Source: Trueperaceae bacterium | GTDB taxonomy: Bacteria > Deinococcota > Deinococci > Deinococcales > Trueperaceae | Length of the DNA: 64,000 nt | Direction: 5' to 3' | Assembly (NCBI GenBank): GCA_034520945.1 | Contig: JAXHNB010000006.1 | Location: 160,001-224,000 of the forward strand | Part shown: in pieces, positions 18,001-27,000 of the stretch | How positions within the stretch are numbered: position 1 is the stretch's first letter | Layout: every line of letters begins with the position of its first letter | Program-made: the position numbers

Positions 18001-21000
18001 GCCGATCCCGATGAGCTGCTCCGCGACGCCGACACCGCCATGTACCGCGCCAAGGCGGAGGGCAAGGCCCGGCACGCCGTGTTCGACGCCGGCATGCACG
18101 AACAGGCGAAGCACCGCCTGGCGCTGGATACCTCGTTGCACCACGCCATCGAGAACGACGCGCTTTCGCTCGCGTTCCAACCGATCCTGCGCCTGAGCGA
18201 TGCGACCGTGATCGGCGTGGAGGCGCTGGTCCGCTGGACCGATCCGGAGCGCGGCGAGATCCCTCCCGACGAGTTCGTGAAGGCGGCCGAGGAGAGCGGT
18301 GCGATCCTGGAGCTGGATCGCTGGGTCCTGGACCGAGCCTGCAGGCAGATGCGGACGTGGCAGGAGACCTTCCCGCGCGCCCGAGATTGGTCGATCAGCG
18401 TCAATCTGTCGCCGCGGCACTTCACCGTCGCCGAGCCCGCCAAGCGGATCCTGGAGCGGGTGCGCGCCACCGGCCTCGACCCCGCCCACCTGCGGATCGA
18501 GCTGACCGAACGCGCCCTCCTGAACGGCGGCCAGGCGGTGATGGAGGCCTTGGCGGAGCTTCGCGCGCACGGCGTGACGATCGGGATCGACGACTTCGGC
18601 ACCGGCTACAGTTCGCTGGCGCACCTGCAGCGCCTGCCGCTGGACGCCCTCAAAGTGGACGGTTCGTTCGTGCAGGGGTTGCGCGGTCCGCCGCAACAGC
18701 GGCAGATGGTCAGCACCATCGTGGCGCTGGCCCAGGGCCTCGGCATCGAGACCGTCGCGGAGGGGGTCGAGGAGCAGCTGCAGTGGGACGCGCTGCGGGG
18801 CCTGGGCTGCACCTACGGCCAGGGGCACCTGTGGTCGCGGGCCATGCCAGCAGGCGCGTTCGCCGGCCGCTACCTCTCCACCCCGGCCGACGTCCCGCCC
18901 GACGTGCGAAACTGACGCCATGCGCTCGCAAGACGCCCCTCTCCGGGTCGCACACGTCGCGATCCTACGCCCCGCCTTTCGAGGGGACGCGCCCGCCGCC
19001 GTGCGCCGCGCGCAGGAGGGCCTCGCCGCCTGGGCGCCACGGTTGGGCGTCCAGGTCGCGTCGGTCACGGTAGGAAGCCAGGTCCGCCACGGCGCCACCG
19101 GCGCGCAGGTTCCCGAGGGAACCGTGAGCGACGCCGAGGACGCCCGTCGCGCCGCGGCGCGCATCGAGGCGGATCCGCCCGACCTGTTGCTGATCCAGCA
19201 CGCCACCTTCGCGACCGGCGATCTGCTGGCCCCCTTGTTGCGCGCCGCGCCGCGCGTGGCGGTGTGGGCGACGCCCGAAGGGGCGGCGGGCGAGGGACCG
19301 CTGCCGTTCAACGCGCTGTGCGGGCTGCAGATGACGCTGTCCATGCTGGGCGTGCCCGAGGTGGATCGTGGCGAGGCTCCGGTCAAGTGGCTGTACGGCG
19401 ACGTGCACGAAGACCGGTTCCGGGAGGCCTTCGCGACCACGTTGGCGGCGCTGCGCGGGGTCCGCGCCCTGTCGCGGGCGCGCATCCTCGCCATCGGCGG
19501 GACGGCGCCGGCCTTCTACGCGCTGGAGGAGCGCCCCGACGCCCTGTCCGGCGTCACGGTGACGCCCTGCGAGCTGCGCGATCTGTTCGATCGCGTCGAG
19601 GCCGTCCCCGAGCGCGAGGCGCGGGCGCGCGCGACCGACTGGGCGGACCGGCACGCGCTGGAGGTGGACGACGCGACCCTGCTTCGCGGCGCCCGCATCG
19701 AGCGGGCCCTGGCCGCCCTCGGGGAGGAGGCCGGCGCCGACGCGCTGGCGGTCCGCTGCTGGCCCGAGCTTCCCGACGCCTGCGGCGCCATGGCCTGCGC
19801 CGGGATGGGCACCCGCGCGGGCGAGGGCATGCCGGCCGCCTGCGAGGGCGACGTGATGGGGGCGTTGTCGATGCTGGCGTTGCAGGGCGTGGCCGCGGAA
19901 GCCGCCATCCTGATGGACGTCTCCGACCTGAGCGAGGCCGATGATGCGCTACTCCTGTGGCATTGCGGCAACGCCCCCCTGGCCTGGGCCGACCCCGAGG
20001 GGCCCCGGCCGCGGCTCACCACGCACTTCAACCGCACCGACGACGGACCGATACGCGACATGGCGCTGGCGCCCGGACCGGCCACCGCGTTGCGCCTGCT
20101 GTCCGGCGGGCGCGAGGCGTTGATCGCCTCGGGGCGCATCCGGCGCCTGGACCGCAGCGGCTACGACGGCGTGCGCGGGTGGTGGTCCGACCTCGCCTGG
20201 CACGGCGCGTCGCTCAGCGCCGAGCGGTTCCTGGCCGAGATGCTGCACCAGCGCGTGCCCCACCACCTGGCGGCCGTGGCGGGGGCGTGCGCACCGGCGT
20301 TGGCCGAAATGGCGGGATGGCTGGGCATCGCGCCGCGCACGGTGCAGGCGCGTCCGTTTCCCGGCGCGCTCCACGGCGGAGGTGCGCCCGCCCCACGGGG
20401 GCCGGCATGAGGCGCGCCCCGCGGGTGCTGTGCGTCGGGCTCAGCTGCCTCGACATGGTGTGGGAGGTGGCGCACTTCCCGCCGCGCGCCTCGCGCACGC
20501 CCGCCCGGACGCACGCCCGCCGCGGCGGTGGGCCCGCCGCCACCGCGGCGGTGGCGGCCGCCCGCTACGGGGCGGAGGTCGCGCTGTGGGCGGTCCACGG
20601 CGATGACGAGGCCGGGCCCGAGTTGGATCACGCCCTGCGCGCCGAGGCGGTCGACACCCGGTGGGTGCGGGTCCCGCCGGGCGCGCGCAGTTTCGTCAGC
20701 GCCGTGCTGGTCGCACCGGACGGCGAGCGGTGGATCTTCCCCTACCGCGGAGAGGGACTCAATGATGATCCCGACTGGTGGCCGCTGCCGCAGGTGGCGG
20801 AGGTGGACGCGCTCCTCACCGACCTGCGCCACCCGCGCTTGGCGCGCGCCGCGCTCCTTGCCGCGCGCGAGGCGAACGTGCCCACCGTCGTCGACCTGGG
20901 GCGGGCCGAGGACGCCACGGAGGCCATGACGGCCGATCACGTGGTGGCGGCGCGCGAGGCCGCCGAACGCATCGGGCGGGACGCGGCCGCCCCGCAGCCC

Positions 21001-24000: not shown

Positions 24001-27000
24001 GTCGGCAGCACCATCCTGGAGGAGCCGATCCACTACCTGGACCTGGCGCGCTGGCTGCTGGGCGACCCGTCCTGGCTGCACGCGTTCGCGACCAGCCGCG
24101 CGGGGCACGAGGGGACGTACGAGAACCTGAGCGTGCACCTGGGGTTCGGCGCGGAGGTGCAGGCCGCCGTCACCCGCTCGATCGCGGCCTGGGGGCACGA
24201 GGTGGACCTGCGCCTGGTCGGAGACGAGGGCACCTTCCGGGCGGTGTGGCGCGGGCGGATGGACGCGGACGACGCCCCGGAGGTGCGCGCCTGGCTGCAC
24301 GACCCGGGCGACCGGGACGCACTGCCGGCCCCGCATCCGATTCGGGAGGCCAGCGGGCACGCCTTCGACCTGCCGCGGCAGATGGCGGCCTTCCTGGCGG
24401 CCGTGGCGGGCGAGGGACCGCCGCCCGCGGACGGCCGCGACGGACGCGAGGCGGTGCGGTTGTGCCTGGAGGCTGAACGCTCGGTACGCGAGGGACGCCT
24501 GGAGCTGGCGTAGGCTTCGCGGCGCGGCCCACGCCGGGCGCCGGCCCGCCTCAGCCCGTCCCCCCGCCGGCGCCCCCTCGACCCAGCCCGGCCGCGCCCC
24601 CCGCCACCACGAGGTACCCAGCCGCGGCGACGTGCAGGGCCGCGTCGAACCCGGCCAGGTGCGCCAGCGCCACCGCCGCGGTGCCGCCGGTGAGGGAACC
24701 GAGCCCGTTGGCGGCCCATGCCCGCGCCACCGCGGCGGCGCCCATGTGGCCCACGCGGCGCAACAGCAACGGAAACGGCGCGCCCAGCGCCACGCCCAAC
24801 GGCGCGAGGGTGGCGGCCGTCACGGCGGCGCGGGCCGCGAACGGGGCGGCCTGGGCGACGCCCGCCACCGCCGGCCACGCCCAAGTCCAGGCCAGCGCCG
24901 CCCCGCCCGCCACCACCGCCGCGCCCGCCACCGCCGGCCAGGCGTCCCGGTAGCGGCGCGCCAGGCCCGCCCCGAGCCCGCCGCCCGCCAGCAGCGCGCC
25001 CAGCGTGACGGCCAAGGCCGCCGCCGGATGCCCGAGCAGCAGCTGCGCCCGCGACAACGCCGCGACCTCCAGCGCCAGGAAGGCGACGCCCAGCACGCCG
25101 GCCAGCACGCTCGCGCGCCGCGCGCCGGGCGGCCCGCCGCGCACGCCGGCCCAAAGCAGGAACGCCCCGACGAGGATCGCCGCGCCCAGCACGCCCAGCA
25201 GCCGCCGCAGCACCGGCGGCACGCCGGGGCTGAACGACCAGAAGAACGGCGCATCGTCCCGGGTGGGGAAGAGGTCCACCCCCTGCGAGGCGGCCAGCAC
25301 GCTCCGCATCGGCCGTGTGCCCGCCGCCACCTCGTCCAGCGGGGGGCGTTCCAGCAACCCGGGGAGGTGCAGCAGCGACAGCCCGGCCGCCTCCGCGGCG
25401 CGGGCCACCGCCACCACCCGCGCGCGGGGCGGCGCCTCGGCGAAGGCCAGCAGCAACGGCGTCGGCGGCGCGGTGCCGCCGTCCAGCACAATGATCACGT
25501 GCGCCAGGGCGTCCGCGTCGCTGAGCCCCCGTTCCCTCGACGCCGCCATGACGGTGGCCAGGGCGCGGGTGAGGGTGGCCTCGTCGTACAGTTCGAAGGC
25601 CACCGCGCCGCCGGGCGCCAACCGGGACAGGTAGCCTCGGACCGCCTCCACGGTGTAGATGCCGTTCTCGGTGAGCGCCAGCCGGCGCGCCTCGCTGGTG
25701 CGCGTCACCGCCTGCGACAGCGCGATCAGGTCGAACGGCCCCTCGGCGCGGCGCAGCACGCTGCGCGCCTCGTCGCGGTGCCAACGCACCCGCGGGTCCG
25801 CGAACGGATCCGTGGCGCCGAACGTGGCGCGGCGTGCCAACGCCAGCGCGCCCCCGTTCACCTCGGCGGCGACGACCCGTTCGGCGCCGGTCTCCAGGGC
25901 GTGGGCCACCTCGAGGCCGGCGCCGGCCCCCACCACGAACACCCGTTCCGGCCGCAGCGCCTCGAACGGGAAGCGTCCCAGGTCGCCCCGCCACAGCGTG
26001 CCCCGGTCCTCGGTCGGGACCAGCGAGCCGGCGCCGCCGTCCAGGTACACGATCTCGGCGCCGTCGGCGCGGCGCAGGCGTTCGCTGAGGCCCAGCGTGC
26101 CCCAGGCCGCGTCCAGCACGCGTCCGCCGCGGGCCAGCTCGCGCGGGAGGGACTTGTCGTCCAGCCCCTGCGCGGCGCTGGCGGCCGGCCAGGGCGTGAG
26201 GGTCGACGTCACCACGAGTGCCGCCGTCAGGGCCGTGACCGCCTGCACCGCGGCGGCGCGGCGTCCCGCCAGCACCGAGCCGCCGGCCGCCACCGCCAGC
26301 CCGGACACCAGCGCAGCCGTGGGGGCGCCCAGCACGCCCAGCAGCGGCAGCGAGGCGGCGGCGCCCGCCGCCGCCCCCCACAGGTCGGCGCGGTACAGGC
26401 GCGGCGCGTGCGACGCGCCCACGGCGAACACCGCCGCGGCCGCCAAGCCCAGCGCCGCGAAGCCGGGCAGCGAGGCGGCCAGGGTCAGCGGCATGCCCAG
26501 GCGGCCGCCGAACGCCAGTGCCACCAGCGAGCCCGCATGGATCAGCAGGCCGGCGGCGGCCGCGGCACGCGCGGCGCCCGTTCGCGTCAACCAGCGCGGC
26601 CGGGCCGCGCCGACCGCGGCGCCGAGCGACACCCCGCCGACCGCCAACGACACCACCAGGAAGGCGCCGTCGCCGAAGAACAGCAGCCCCGCGATGCGGG
26701 TCCACGCCAGCTCGCTCAGGAGGCCGCCGCCGGCCAGCAGAAACGCGGCGAGGGGCAGGGGGCGGCCGGGCACCCTCAGCGTTCCGCGCTGCGGGGGTCC
26801 AACAGGTCGCGCAGGCCGTCGCCGAGGAAGTTGAACCCCATCACGGAGACCATGATCGCCAGGCCGGGGAAGATCCCCATCCACGGCGCTTGCCGCAGGA
26901 AGGCGCGCCCCTCGGCGAGCATGCGGCCCCAGCTGGGTTCGGGGGGTTGCGTGCCCAGCCCGAAGAAGGACAGGGCGGCCTCCGCGAGGATGGCGAACGC

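Follow-up and report, generated by a model that had tools for sequence, protein, structure and literature searches.

Plants and algae contain an abundant sulfur-bearing sugar, sulfoquinovose (SQ). Some 10 billion tonnes are produced each year (PMC12890257), and full breakdown is usually shared between species, the desulfonating enzymes being "rarely co-inherited" (PMC13436972). The closest described counterparts of the locus studied here are the hybrid sulfo-EMP1/2 clusters (sulfo-EMP, the Embden-Meyerhof-Parnas type of sulfoglycolysis) of Proteobacteria, Actinobacteria and Firmicutes (Sharma et al., 2023, PMC10665668; Wei et al., 2022, PMC9594981), one of which has been demonstrated by experiment in Vibrio mediterranei (PMC13372026). 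Their Pfam definition (PMC10665668) combines a PF00294 kinase, a PF01791 aldolase and a PF02952 or PF07221 isomerase. A bioinformatically described actinobacterial cluster with GH188 Y160 holds a fucose isomerase, SF kinase, SFP aldolase, ABC transporter, GH188, PGDH-like dehydrogenase and SuyAB (Backlund and Higgins, 2024, PMC11465081). The survey's finding that there was no report of such an arrangement was thus too strong. Deinococcota are absent from the text and the searched supplement of the hybrid sulfo-EMP1/2 reports (PMC10665668, PMC9594981, PMC13372026), and in the literature we found no description of such a cluster from this phylum beyond entries in a list of GH188 proteins.

Two further systems are relevant. 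The E. coli sulfo-EMP pathway (YihQ/R/S/V/T/U) resembles the one proposed below in its YihV-like kinase, its class I aldolase chemistry and a YihQ, here encoded elsewhere in the genome, but it imports its substrate by an MFS rather than an ABC transporter, the cluster studied here is without a sulfolactaldehyde (SLA) reductase, and this genome gave no match to YihS or YihR. The sulfofucose cluster of Paracoccus Merri (PMC12421959) shares an 8TNF-type aldolase beside a PfkB kinase, SlcC/ComC-SuyAB and sulfite release in one cell, but its route is of the Entner-Doudoroff type and its cluster lacks an isomerase.

The operon and its distribution in Deinococcota

The window, a stretch of 64,000 nucleotides from a Trueperaceae bacterium, carries the operon that the survey had placed at 18920..24513, and this is borne out: five ORFs lie on the same (+) strand with successive overlaps of 4 bp (ATGA/GTGA), all of them unbroken and with 57-69% identity to copies from the same genus. 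The features are:

18920..20410, + strand: aldose-ketose isomerase of FucI/AraA fold, Deinococcota subfamily, 496 aa; predicted to convert SQ to sulfofructose
20407..21387, + strand: PfkB kinase, YihV-like, 326 aa; predicted sulfofructose kinase
21384..22460, + strand: class I aldolase of the 8TNF/LacD group, 358 aa, with Pro30 where relatives have Gln; predicted sulfofructose-1-phosphate aldolase
22457..23500, + strand: Gfo/Idh/MocA oxidoreductase 1 (OX1), 347 aa, Pfam PF01408; predicted partner of OX2 on imported SQ glycoside
23497..24513, + strand: Gfo/Idh/MocA oxidoreductase 2 (OX2), 338 aa, distantly resembling GH188 (SqgA) without belonging to it; candidate subunit of a sulfoquinovosidase
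30955..31956, - strand: D-cysteate sulfo-lyase CuyA (NF052482, 501.7 bits; cut-off 450), 6.4 kb downstream of the operon

OX1 and OX2 fall inside the span first reported but went undiscussed there. From what was directly observed (genes, their order, folds, residue conservation and co-occurrence) we infer the activities and the substrate, and we put at roughly 85% the probability that the operon encodes the core of a sulfo-EMP pathway for SQ. Gene context carries more of this reading than do the best matches reported by the survey.

Isomerase matches (E ≤ 1e-3) occur in 94 of 301 sampled Deinococcota genomes; 77 of these, counted by hand, reach E ≤ 1e-60 (44/103 Trueperaceae, 30/62 Thermaceae and 3/112 in a third family, f2). 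Within about 10 kb of the isomerase, the kinase was present at all 49 loci and the aldolase at 42, and a SmoF-type importer is usual, in agreement with the earlier claim that the isomerase typically follows a sugar ABC importer and is accompanied by these two enzymes. Three Thermaceae genomes with the cluster have no such aldolase, just a 30% LacD-like paralog. Among solved structures, the operon-adjacent binding protein of relatives matches SmoF best (E 5e-123, 414 bits; the next one scores 215), and SmoF D67, D113, G166 and R345 are kept in 33/33 binding proteins. SmoF-, SlcC-, ComC-, SuyA- and SuyB-like genes are found at 18/18 Thermaceae loci versus 0/28 loci of the nearest isomerase paralogs, and GH188 lies within the cluster at 8 of the former and none of the latter. 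SuyB and the isomerase occur in one and the same set of Thermaceae genomes (30/62), although the genomes are kin and such co-occurrence counts are therefore not independent events. SuyB is 56% identical to a UxaA-family gene beside hpsN/hpsO in Cupriavidus pinatubonensis. This arrangement is nearly that of the actinobacterial cluster (PMC11465081), which differs in having its own SLA dehydrogenase and a Tyr-variant GH188. Related hot-spring bacteria thus combine the operon with genes predicted to remove the sulfur in the same cell.

An SLA reductase or dehydrogenase was found in the cluster at 0/29 Trueperaceae, 1/18 Thermaceae and 1/2 f2 loci; GabD-like genes at 60-65% occur elsewhere in this genome and also in 5/5 Thermaceae genomes tested. 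At 7/49 Deinococcota loci there is a 30% homolog of an M24-fold protein encoded after SqvD-like genes in clusters of Bacillota. At two loci (L274 and L275), slcC-like, cuyB and cuyA genes stand at the place matching the window's cuyA, which is probably what is left of an slcC-cuyB-cuyA module located after the operon in relatives. CuyA is near-core in Trueperaceae (82/103 genomes over the cut-off), so its presence alone is weak evidence.

Isomerase, kinase and aldolase

The isomerase had been described as a Firmicute-type SftI/SqvD enzyme. Its match to NCBIfam SftI (NF048012) was reproduced (E 4.1e-33, against 4e-33 reported), far under the cut-off (114.8 versus 700 bits). That model is narrow, as SqvD-like Bacillota proteins likewise stay under 700 (236-536 bits), and the match is not diagnostic, because isomerase paralogs without nearby sulfonate genes score as high or higher. 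Identity to SftI/SqvD is 23-31%. In a quickly computed 31-row tree (without the long-branched FucI and AraA; SqvD-like references picked by score and context) the isomerase nests with the non-sulfonate paralogs (SH-aLRT 100), apart from the SqvD-like proteins, and a single clade with the latter is rejected (AU test, p 1.7e-5). On the score and the tree we reject the SftI/SqvD assignment; judged by its sequence, the protein belongs to a separate FucI/AraA-fold subfamily of Deinococcota. It does share with SftI/SqvD the fold, the E-D-H metal site and a short H-x-N-R loop that is absent from most paralogs. In fold, the predicted structure (pLDDT 93) is similar to arabinose and fucose isomerases (TM 0.67-0.77), the arabinose isomerases being nearest, and the Glu-Asp-His metal ligands of FucI are kept as E309, D333 and H449. 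Pfam gave no match for the window isomerase, and PF02952 was found in 3 of 120 homologs among the matches listed.

The kinase carries PF00294 and the aldolase PF01791, as in the hybrid sulfo-EMP1/2 definition, and the mosaic with a FucI-family isomerase and the predicted intermediates are also the same; the Deinococcota isomerase, however, falls outside the SqvD clade, and the aldolase does not belong to the YihT group. YihV (7ag6, E 8.8e-40) is indeed the kinase's best solved relative, but the gap to the next match is narrower than the survey gave (1e-8): 2rbc ("sugar kinase") follows at E 5.4e-31 and ribokinases at 3e-20. YihV Arg138 and Asp244 are kept in 45/45 homologs, Asn109 in 0/45 (Pro in 43), and Lys27 is Arg in 38/38 aligned rows (7 further rows are truncated); the YihV sulfonate pocket Lys27-Asn109-Arg138 reads Arg/Pro/Arg in the operon kinase.

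For the aldolase, the match to 8tnf (E 2.5e-83, 44% identity) was reproduced, and the title of that entry, [quoted passage not shown], confirms the one given by the survey; 8TNF is presumably Merri MDP0926269, although the paper (PMC12421959) does not name 8TNF. LacD follows at about 1e-34 and YihT at 3e-16. With YihT at only 27% identity, a YihT-type aldolase was rejected. YihT Lys193 (Schiff base), Ser226 and Arg253 are kept in 40/40 rows, with Ala or Gly for Ser227; a LacD-like control has the same residues at these sites, so that Arg253 is not diagnostic. The subfamily match in NCBIfam is tagatose 1,6-diphosphate aldolase, over the cut-off.

Candidate sulfoquinovosidases

The survey had identified no sulfoquinovosidase. 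A YihQ is in fact encoded outside the cluster (G000:C9:76142-78454), with Q288, R301, W304, Y508 and both catalytic Asp kept, and GH188 is present in 27/30 isomerase-positive Thermaceae genomes and 0/32 others. The Thermaceae cluster gene (c17) is a full GH188 member: it matches 8qc2 at E 6e-66 and has all seven named SqgA residues in 7/7 full-length rows (an eighth, cut by the locus end, was left out), and Meiothermus and Calidithermus proteins of the same length are listed as GH188 by Kaur et al. (2023, PMC10755693). Across Deinococcota, YihQ is found mostly in genomes without the isomerase, and neither YihQ nor SqgA was found in 41/44 isomerase-positive Trueperaceae genomes.

OX1 is present at 27/29 and OX2 at 26/29 Trueperaceae loci, and both score best in NCBIfam on inositol 2-dehydrogenase, below its cut-off. 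In OX1, R155 and K157, which precede a D-x-x-x-H motif, are invariant. The best single-sequence PDB matches of OX2 are 8qc3/8qc2 (E 3.5e-20), with 8qc2 at rank 7 in a profile search (18 rows). Five of the seven SqgA active-site residues (K107, R166, E189, H193 and H321) are kept in OX2 as K93, R152, E175, H179 and H288, invariant over the 18 rows, but the catalytic Tyr136 (Met122) and the sulfonate ligand Lys172 (Gly158) are missing; OX2 is also about 50 residues shorter than SqgA, the NAD+-dependent GH188 enzyme, and travels with OX1. Membership in GH188 was rejected on the two missing residues. A second gene in relatives' clusters (c29) encodes a YicI-like GH31 (E 4e-104 to 5f7c versus 7e-47 to YihQ) that keeps the catalytic Asp pair but not the Arg301-Trp304-Tyr508 motif. 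The OX1/OX2 pair and the YicI-like GH31 are two candidate new sulfoquinovosidase types.

The proposed pathway and its alternatives

In the proposed route, a SmoF-type ABC importer would take up SQ or SQ-glycerol, and SQ would be freed by YihQ in this genome, by GH188 in most Thermaceae and probably by the OX1/OX2 pair in most Trueperaceae. A Mn-type isomerase would yield sulfofructose, the kinase sulfofructose-1-phosphate, and the Schiff-base aldolase DHAP and SLA, which a GabD-like dehydrogenase, usually encoded elsewhere, would oxidize to sulfolactate. Desulfonation in Thermaceae would follow in the same cell by SlcC/ComC and then SuyAB, giving pyruvate and sulfite, and in some Trueperaceae through sulfopyruvate and cysteate (SlcC-like, CuyB, CuyA). 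Of the mixed sulfo-EMP route first suggested, the sulfosugar, most likely SQ, and the trio of FucI/AraA-fold isomerase, PfkB kinase and class I aldolase stand, and the SftI/SqvD identity falls. In favor of SQ count the SmoF, GH188 and SuyAB/SlcC/ComC associations, the YihQ, importer and CuyA of this genome, the kinase's Arg138, the aldolase's nearest solved relative and the M24-fold homologs. Against it count the non-sulfonate contexts of the isomerase's nearest relatives, the replaced Asn109 of the kinase, the near absence of SLA dehydrogenases from the clusters, the three Thermaceae genomes without this aldolase, and YihQ being mostly in isomerase-free genomes.

No SuyAB, GH188 or clear SlcC was found in this genome, which, like the aldolase's Gln30Pro, also speaks against the reading, and the route may be partly eroded here. 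It is possible, though we would not favor it, and compatible with the sulfo-EMP explanation, that the family pathway is as proposed while this copy is decaying or no longer serves full SQ catabolism. The aldolase motif DQR, kept in 69/70 matches, reads DPR (Gln30Pro) only in the window copy, and a contig of run X1 covering the codon shows no difference there. Upstream, neither the LacI regulator nor the importer is present any longer, the operon start lying 4 bp after the end of a GGDEF/EAL gene; slcC and cuyB are missing beside cuyA, and the genome's SmoF-type importer, on another contig (C1; 65-85% in best segments), is frameshifted. Against decay, the five ORFs and YihQ are intact, same-genus relatives likewise lack the importer at the operon, and frameshifts also in C1 neighbors and in a C run of the sqdB-like gene indicate assembly errors. 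That gene, split over two frames, adjoins a GT4 gene (G000:C5:280193-282603), so sulfolipid-type genes, which the survey ascribed to the family, are present in this genome.

Arabinose isomerases convert galactose to tagatose. The substrate, alone or besides SQ, might be the C4 epimer sulfofucose, isomerized to sulfotagatose and cleaved as sulfotagatose-1-phosphate by the 8TNF/LacD-type aldolase. The isomerase fold is nearest arabinose isomerases, the aldolase is nearest that of a sulfofucose degrader and then tagatose-bisphosphate aldolases, and the Merri cluster has a kinase-aldolase pair plus SlcC/ComC/SuyAB. We nevertheless think this improbable: all 33 binding proteins retain the residues with which SmoF contacts the C2-C4 hydroxyls, and the GH188 proteins retain the C4-OH ligand Glu189, both references being SQ-binding proteins, and in Merri, where an EMP-type sulfofucose route was proposed but not found, sulfofucose did not induce the kinase and aldolase (PMC12421959). 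That the trio acts on an unsulfonated sugar (tagatose-, psicose- or inositol-derived), the sulfonate genes being neighbors with a separate job, is very unlikely: the isomerase does nest among paralogs of non-sulfonate clusters (psicose-epimerase-like, DHA kinase, LacD-type aldolase), the aldolase and OX1/OX2 have the family matches given above and CuyA is near-core, but three unrelated sulfonate functions (SmoF, GH188 and SuyAB/SlcC/ComC) are co-oriented in the cluster or track it genome by genome and are missing at the 28 paralog loci, and the H-x-N-R loop is shared with SqvD-like proteins, not with most paralogs.

For the sulfo-EMP reading, the pathway logic is already known; what is new is the phylum, the subfamily of the isomerase, the possibility that cultured thermophiles mineralize SQ alone, and the two candidate sulfoquinovosidases. 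A fuller picture, which we offer tentatively and consider doubtful as a whole, would give Deinococcota their own SQ enzyme set: a separately derived isomerase; OX1 and OX2 as a two-subunit NAD+-dependent sulfoquinovosidase outside GH188, filling the role in genomes where no YihQ or SqgA was found; the YicI-like GH31 without the Arg-Trp-Tyr motif as a further one in carriers lacking both; and cultured Meiothermus and Calidithermus mineralizing SQ to sulfite in one cell. The two candidate types would address a gap noted for other SQ degraders without YihQ and SqgA (PMC13219744), and surveys requiring 30% identity to known isomerases (PMC13372026) would probably miss such clusters. Named strains are available (Meiothermus taiwanensis DSM 14542, Calidithermus chliarophilus DSM 9957 and Deinococcus peraridilitoris DSM 19664). 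If the reading is true, the orphan structure 8TNF would gain a pathway, thermostable enzymes would be supplied, and the SQ degraders would gain a phylum through this cluster, with half of the sampled Thermaceae genomes among them.

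The operon and its distribution

The five intact ORFs at 18920-24513 lie on the same strand, with a four-base overlap between each and the next, and form a real operon; we put at about 85% the probability that its function is sulfo-EMP catabolism of sulfoquinovose (SQ).

Features of the window
18920-24513, five ORFs on one strand, in order:
ORF 1: isomerase, 496 aa
ORF 2: PfkB kinase, 326 aa
ORF 3: DeoC/LacD aldolase, 358 aa
ORF 4: Gfo/Idh/MocA oxidoreductase OX1, 347 aa
ORF 5: Gfo/Idh/MocA oxidoreductase OX2, 338 aa
24551-26773 (-): membrane protein of large size that matches neither Pfam nor NCBIfam families, conserved near the operon in the loci of 10 relatives and mostly accompanied there by a peptide ABC importer
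40476-52454 (-): one ORF of about 3,990 codons (gene-finder call)

A gap of 4 bp separates the operon from the end of an upstream GGDEF/EAL gene, no importer lies beside it in this genome, and a promoter and terminator scan gave no signal exceeding that of shuffled sequences.

Isomerase matches were found in 94 of 301 Deinococcota genomes. By hand count, 77 are positive at E<=1e-60: 44/103 in the window's own family, 30/62 in a second family and 3/112 in a third (f2). From named records that carry these clusters, the first two are Trueperaceae and Thermaceae (Meiothermus, Calidithermus), respectively. Loci spanning about 10 kb per side were examined for 49 of the 77 genomes, picked for long contigs, and genes were tallied by tblastn with fixed identity thresholds; the tallies are descriptions rather than tests, because kin genomes are not independent. 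The unpublished genome G252 contributes a single row to the genome surveys for the isomerase, OX2 and CuyA and is one of the 301 or 103 genomes of the other surveys; no claim depends on it alone. The 29 Trueperaceae loci contain the kinase in all 29, the aldolase in 26, OX1 in 27, OX2 in 26 and a SmoF-type binding protein in 16, SlcC-like genes in 9, CuyA in 4 and CuyB in 3. All 18 Thermaceae loci carry the kinase, SmoF and SlcC-, ComC-, SuyA- and SuyB-like genes, with the aldolase in 14, GH188 in 8, GH31 in 2 and an aldehyde dehydrogenase in 1. Kinase, aldolase, SmoF and GH31 are present in both f2 loci. As a control, 28 loci of paralogs 30-45% identical to the isomerase (five of them shorter than 7 kb) yielded no tallied gene over the thresholds.

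Isomerase, kinase and aldolase

Searching solved structures by sequence gave no match for the isomerase; its relatives came from a fold search, in which its model (pLDDT 93) resembles arabinose and fucose isomerases. A Glu-Asp-His metal site is preserved, as judged at what we take to be the metal-ligand positions of FucI. The survey's finding had described the operon as a hybrid with an SftI/SqvD-type isomerase, and the SftI match that it cited was reproduced (115 bits). Paralogs reach 134-177 bits with the same model, however, so we do not accept the match as proof of SQ specificity. We likewise reject the SftI/SqvD assignment itself: it is 23-31% identical to SqvD-like proteins of Bacillota, quick trees place the isomerase among paralogs neighboured by psicose-epimerase-like, DHA kinase and LacD-type genes, and a joint clade with the SqvD-like proteins is rejected (p-AU 1.7e-5). 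One feature that the isomerase does have in common with SqvD-like proteins is a short H-x-N-R loop, found in 8 of 9 of them and in 117 of 120 isomerase homologs, whereas most paralogs have a longer loop. Since the trees have no firm root, they fit an independent origin and an ancestral SQ activity equally well. A distinct cluster, at L080 and L256 (G194:C10), combines another isomerase lineage (c67) with a PfkB kinase, a GH31 gene, a weak SmoF-like importer, an enolase-family dehydratase and a class II aldolase-like gene.

For the kinase, the top solved match is YihV (E 8.8e-40), followed by an uncharacterised sugar kinase (5.4e-31). Among the YihV residues named in PMC8006165, Arg138 and Asp244 are kept in 45/45 kinase sequences, Lys27 is replaced by Arg, and Asn109 is never present. 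The aldolase is 44% identical to PDB entry 8TNF, compared with 27% to YihT; both the earlier match to 8TNF and the title given for that entry, a sulfohexulose-phosphate aldolase, held up. Its Schiff-base Lys, Ser226 and Arg253 are kept in 40/40 sequences, as they are in a LacD-like control. Rhizobial operons that lack an isomerase also carry 8TNF-type kinase-aldolase pairs, so membership in this aldolase group leaves the substrate unfixed. In two of these, on Shinella and Neorhizobium plasmids (L264, L265), the kinase is YihV-like and the pair is joined by genes for an alcohol dehydrogenase, an SDR, a member of the mandelate racemase family and either a TSUP transporter or sulfatases; they possibly serve catabolism of a sulfonated sugar alcohol. 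In three Thermaceae genomes (G054, G069, G009) the 8TNF-type aldolase is absent and importer, isomerase, kinase and desulfonation genes are retained; a LacD-like paralog of 30% identity may substitute for it.

The name "hybrid" is a closer fit for an alphaproteobacterial cluster (L248, G304:C50) than for the window's operon. It contains an SlcC-like gene, a kinase with the complete K27-N109-R138 pocket, an 8TNF-type aldolase, an SqvD-like isomerase (270 bits) and a YicI-like GH31.

Proposed import and release of sulfoquinovose

That the substrate is a sulfosugar is argued from the binding protein, GH188 and the sulfolactate genes. The binding protein has SmoF as its top solved match, with 414 bits versus 215 for the runner-up. 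Of the ligand residues named in the available part of PMC8940949, alignment shows D67, D113, G166 and R345 kept in 33/33 binding proteins, S43 and W276 in 31/33 and Q12 in 26/33; T220 is retained in Trueperaceae and f2 and is Gln in Thermaceae.

The glycosidase genes found differ among the families. In Thermaceae, c17 encodes a GH188 enzyme (E 6e-66 to 8qc2) that has every residue which Kaur et al. name (PMC10755693, as far as its text was available); it occurs in 27/62 genomes, all of them isomerase-positive. Two of the three positive Thermaceae genomes without it have a YicI-like GH31 (c29) directly behind the aldolase, and in the third the contig ends there; the same GH31 is found in two f2 loci, and a related one in L248. 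It lacks the RWY motif, and we therefore rejected it as a YihQ-type enzyme. YihQ itself is present in 30/301 Deinococcota genomes, mostly in genera without the operon, where six YihQ neighbourhoods contained no other sulfoglycolysis gene from the query set; such stand-alone enzymes may supply others with SQ or serve to use the glycerol alone. This genome has a solitary copy (G000:C9:76142-78454, L277), in which the sulfonate motif is complete and the N-terminus bears a hydrophobic segment; having YihQ is unusual, as just 2/44 positive Trueperaceae genomes have YihQ. With GH188 in 1/44, the remaining 41/44 have neither (E<=1e-60 and 1e-45).

OX2 is found in 47/103 Trueperaceae genomes (a partly different sample), including 39/44 positives, with two more in their loci. 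Compared with the GH188 enzyme SqgA, it keeps K107, R166, E189, H193 and H321 and lacks Tyr136 and Lys172; on these two absences and the profile ranking we rejected OX2 as a GH188. The corresponding loop of OX1 contains invariant basic residues, and in the ESM Atlas both proteins match only generic Gfo/Idh/MocA clusters. At one locus (L268), OX1 and OX2 share an operon with SmoF and the permeases in which isomerase, kinase and aldolase are missing; this fits a step of OX1/OX2 on an imported glycoside. The predicted OX1-OX2 complex scored 0.56 (best of three controls, 0.00), with at least 77% of contacts agreeing between runs and a partner pLDDT of at least 87. The mark for a complex was reached by 116/157 solved pairs and 2/215 mismatches, and at scores of 0.60 or less by 18/157 and both mismatches. 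This prediction weakly supports a pairing, and the pass may reflect mere likeness, because SqgA is a solved homodimer. From the complementary distributions, we infer that the OX1/OX2 pair and the YicI-like GH31 are candidate new sulfoquinovosidases.

An M24/creatinase-fold protein occurs in SQ-type clusters of Bacillota (k14; L241-L247) and Deinococcota (c18; L047, L048, L052, L068, L082, L088, L090), with 30% identity between the two; the single paper checked gave no name for it, and it may belong to the SQ pathway as a component so far overlooked. In three other Trueperaceae genomes (L257, L258 and L269, in G235, G202 and G247) an aldo-keto reductase, a GH188 and an alkanesulfonate-monooxygenase-like gene stand in series, at L257 also with a SmoF importer, and probably represent a sulfo-SMO pathway in Deinococcota.

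Predicted fate of the sulfonate and relation to described pathways

The SuyB-like gene is present in 30/62 Thermaceae genomes, a set identical to the 30 isomerase-positive ones, and is 56% identical to a UxaA-family gene beside hpsN and hpsO of Cupriavidus pinatubonensis. Those resembling SlcC and ComC in Thermaceae share 44-47% identity with genes that, on a plasmid of Sinorhizobium mexicanum, adjoin suyAB-like ones; for the ComC-like gene the top NCBIfam match is L-sulfolactate dehydrogenase, below its cut-off. The labels SlcC, ComC and SuyAB are predictions from such comparisons, family and context. In several Trueperaceae genomes cuyB and cuyA, both over their cut-offs, lie behind an slcC-like gene near the operon. 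CuyA is near-core in this family (82/103 genomes), which weakens its mere presence as support for a link; only proximity counts, and by hand count CuyA and the isomerase are no more than 20 kb apart in 15 of the 41 positive genomes of that sample. Several results count against the reading as SQ catabolism. Besides the three Thermaceae genomes without this aldolase and the rhizobial pairs without an isomerase, sulfolactaldehyde dehydrogenase is absent from most clusters; GabD-like genes elsewhere are 60-65% identical to the one clustered copy, and a Deinococcus peraridilitoris plasmid cluster, which carries no suyAB, does include the enzyme.

Gaps in this genome point in the same direction: searches gave no SuyAB, no GH188 and no clear SlcC. 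For SlcC the match was to a SerA-like gene (45%), for ComC to an Ldh_2 gene (37%) and for CuyB to a racemase (43%), both unlinked, and for YihU to a beta-hydroxyacid dehydrogenase of generic type (36%); none was counted as an ortholog. The importer on contig C1 is fragmented, among further broken genes at the contig start. In the DQR motif of the aldolase, Pro replaces Gln, the sole such case in 70 matches (some from duplicate loci); the change is probably real, because a contig from sequencing run X1, possibly the source sample, covers the codon with its single difference elsewhere. Erosion of this copy of the pathway is a fair possibility, if less likely than not. The same genome holds, at G000:C5:280193-282603 (L278), an sqdB-like gene that is divided in two by a frameshift within a run of C, and behind it a GT4 glycosyltransferase, which by sequence are genes of sulfolipid-type synthesis.

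Neither the hybrid idea nor the layout of the cluster is new to the literature. PMC10665668 and PMC9594981 describe hybrid sulfo-EMP1/2 clusters in their accessible portions, a search of the spreadsheet supplement of the former giving no Deinococcota, and such a pathway has been shown in Vibrio (PMC13372026, available in part). The text obtained of PMC11465081 describes an actinobacterial cluster of fucose isomerase, sulfofructose kinase, sulfofructose 1-phosphate aldolase, GH188, a PGDH-like gene and SuyAB. From partial texts, sulfofucose mineralisation in one cell has been shown (bioRxiv 10.1101/2023.08.01.551581, PMC12421959), and desulfonation is described as rarely co-inherited (PMC13436972). 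Meiothermus and Calidithermus proteins appear in the GH188 supplement, which gives no pathway for them. The literature searched, with most subscription papers outside its coverage and others available in part, held no description of SQ catabolism in Deinococcota. What is new here is the phylum, an isomerase subfamily of its own, the availability of cultured strains such as Meiothermus taiwanensis DSM 14542, Calidithermus chliarophilus DSM 9957 and Deinococcus peraridilitoris DSM 19664, and a pair of candidate glycosidases.
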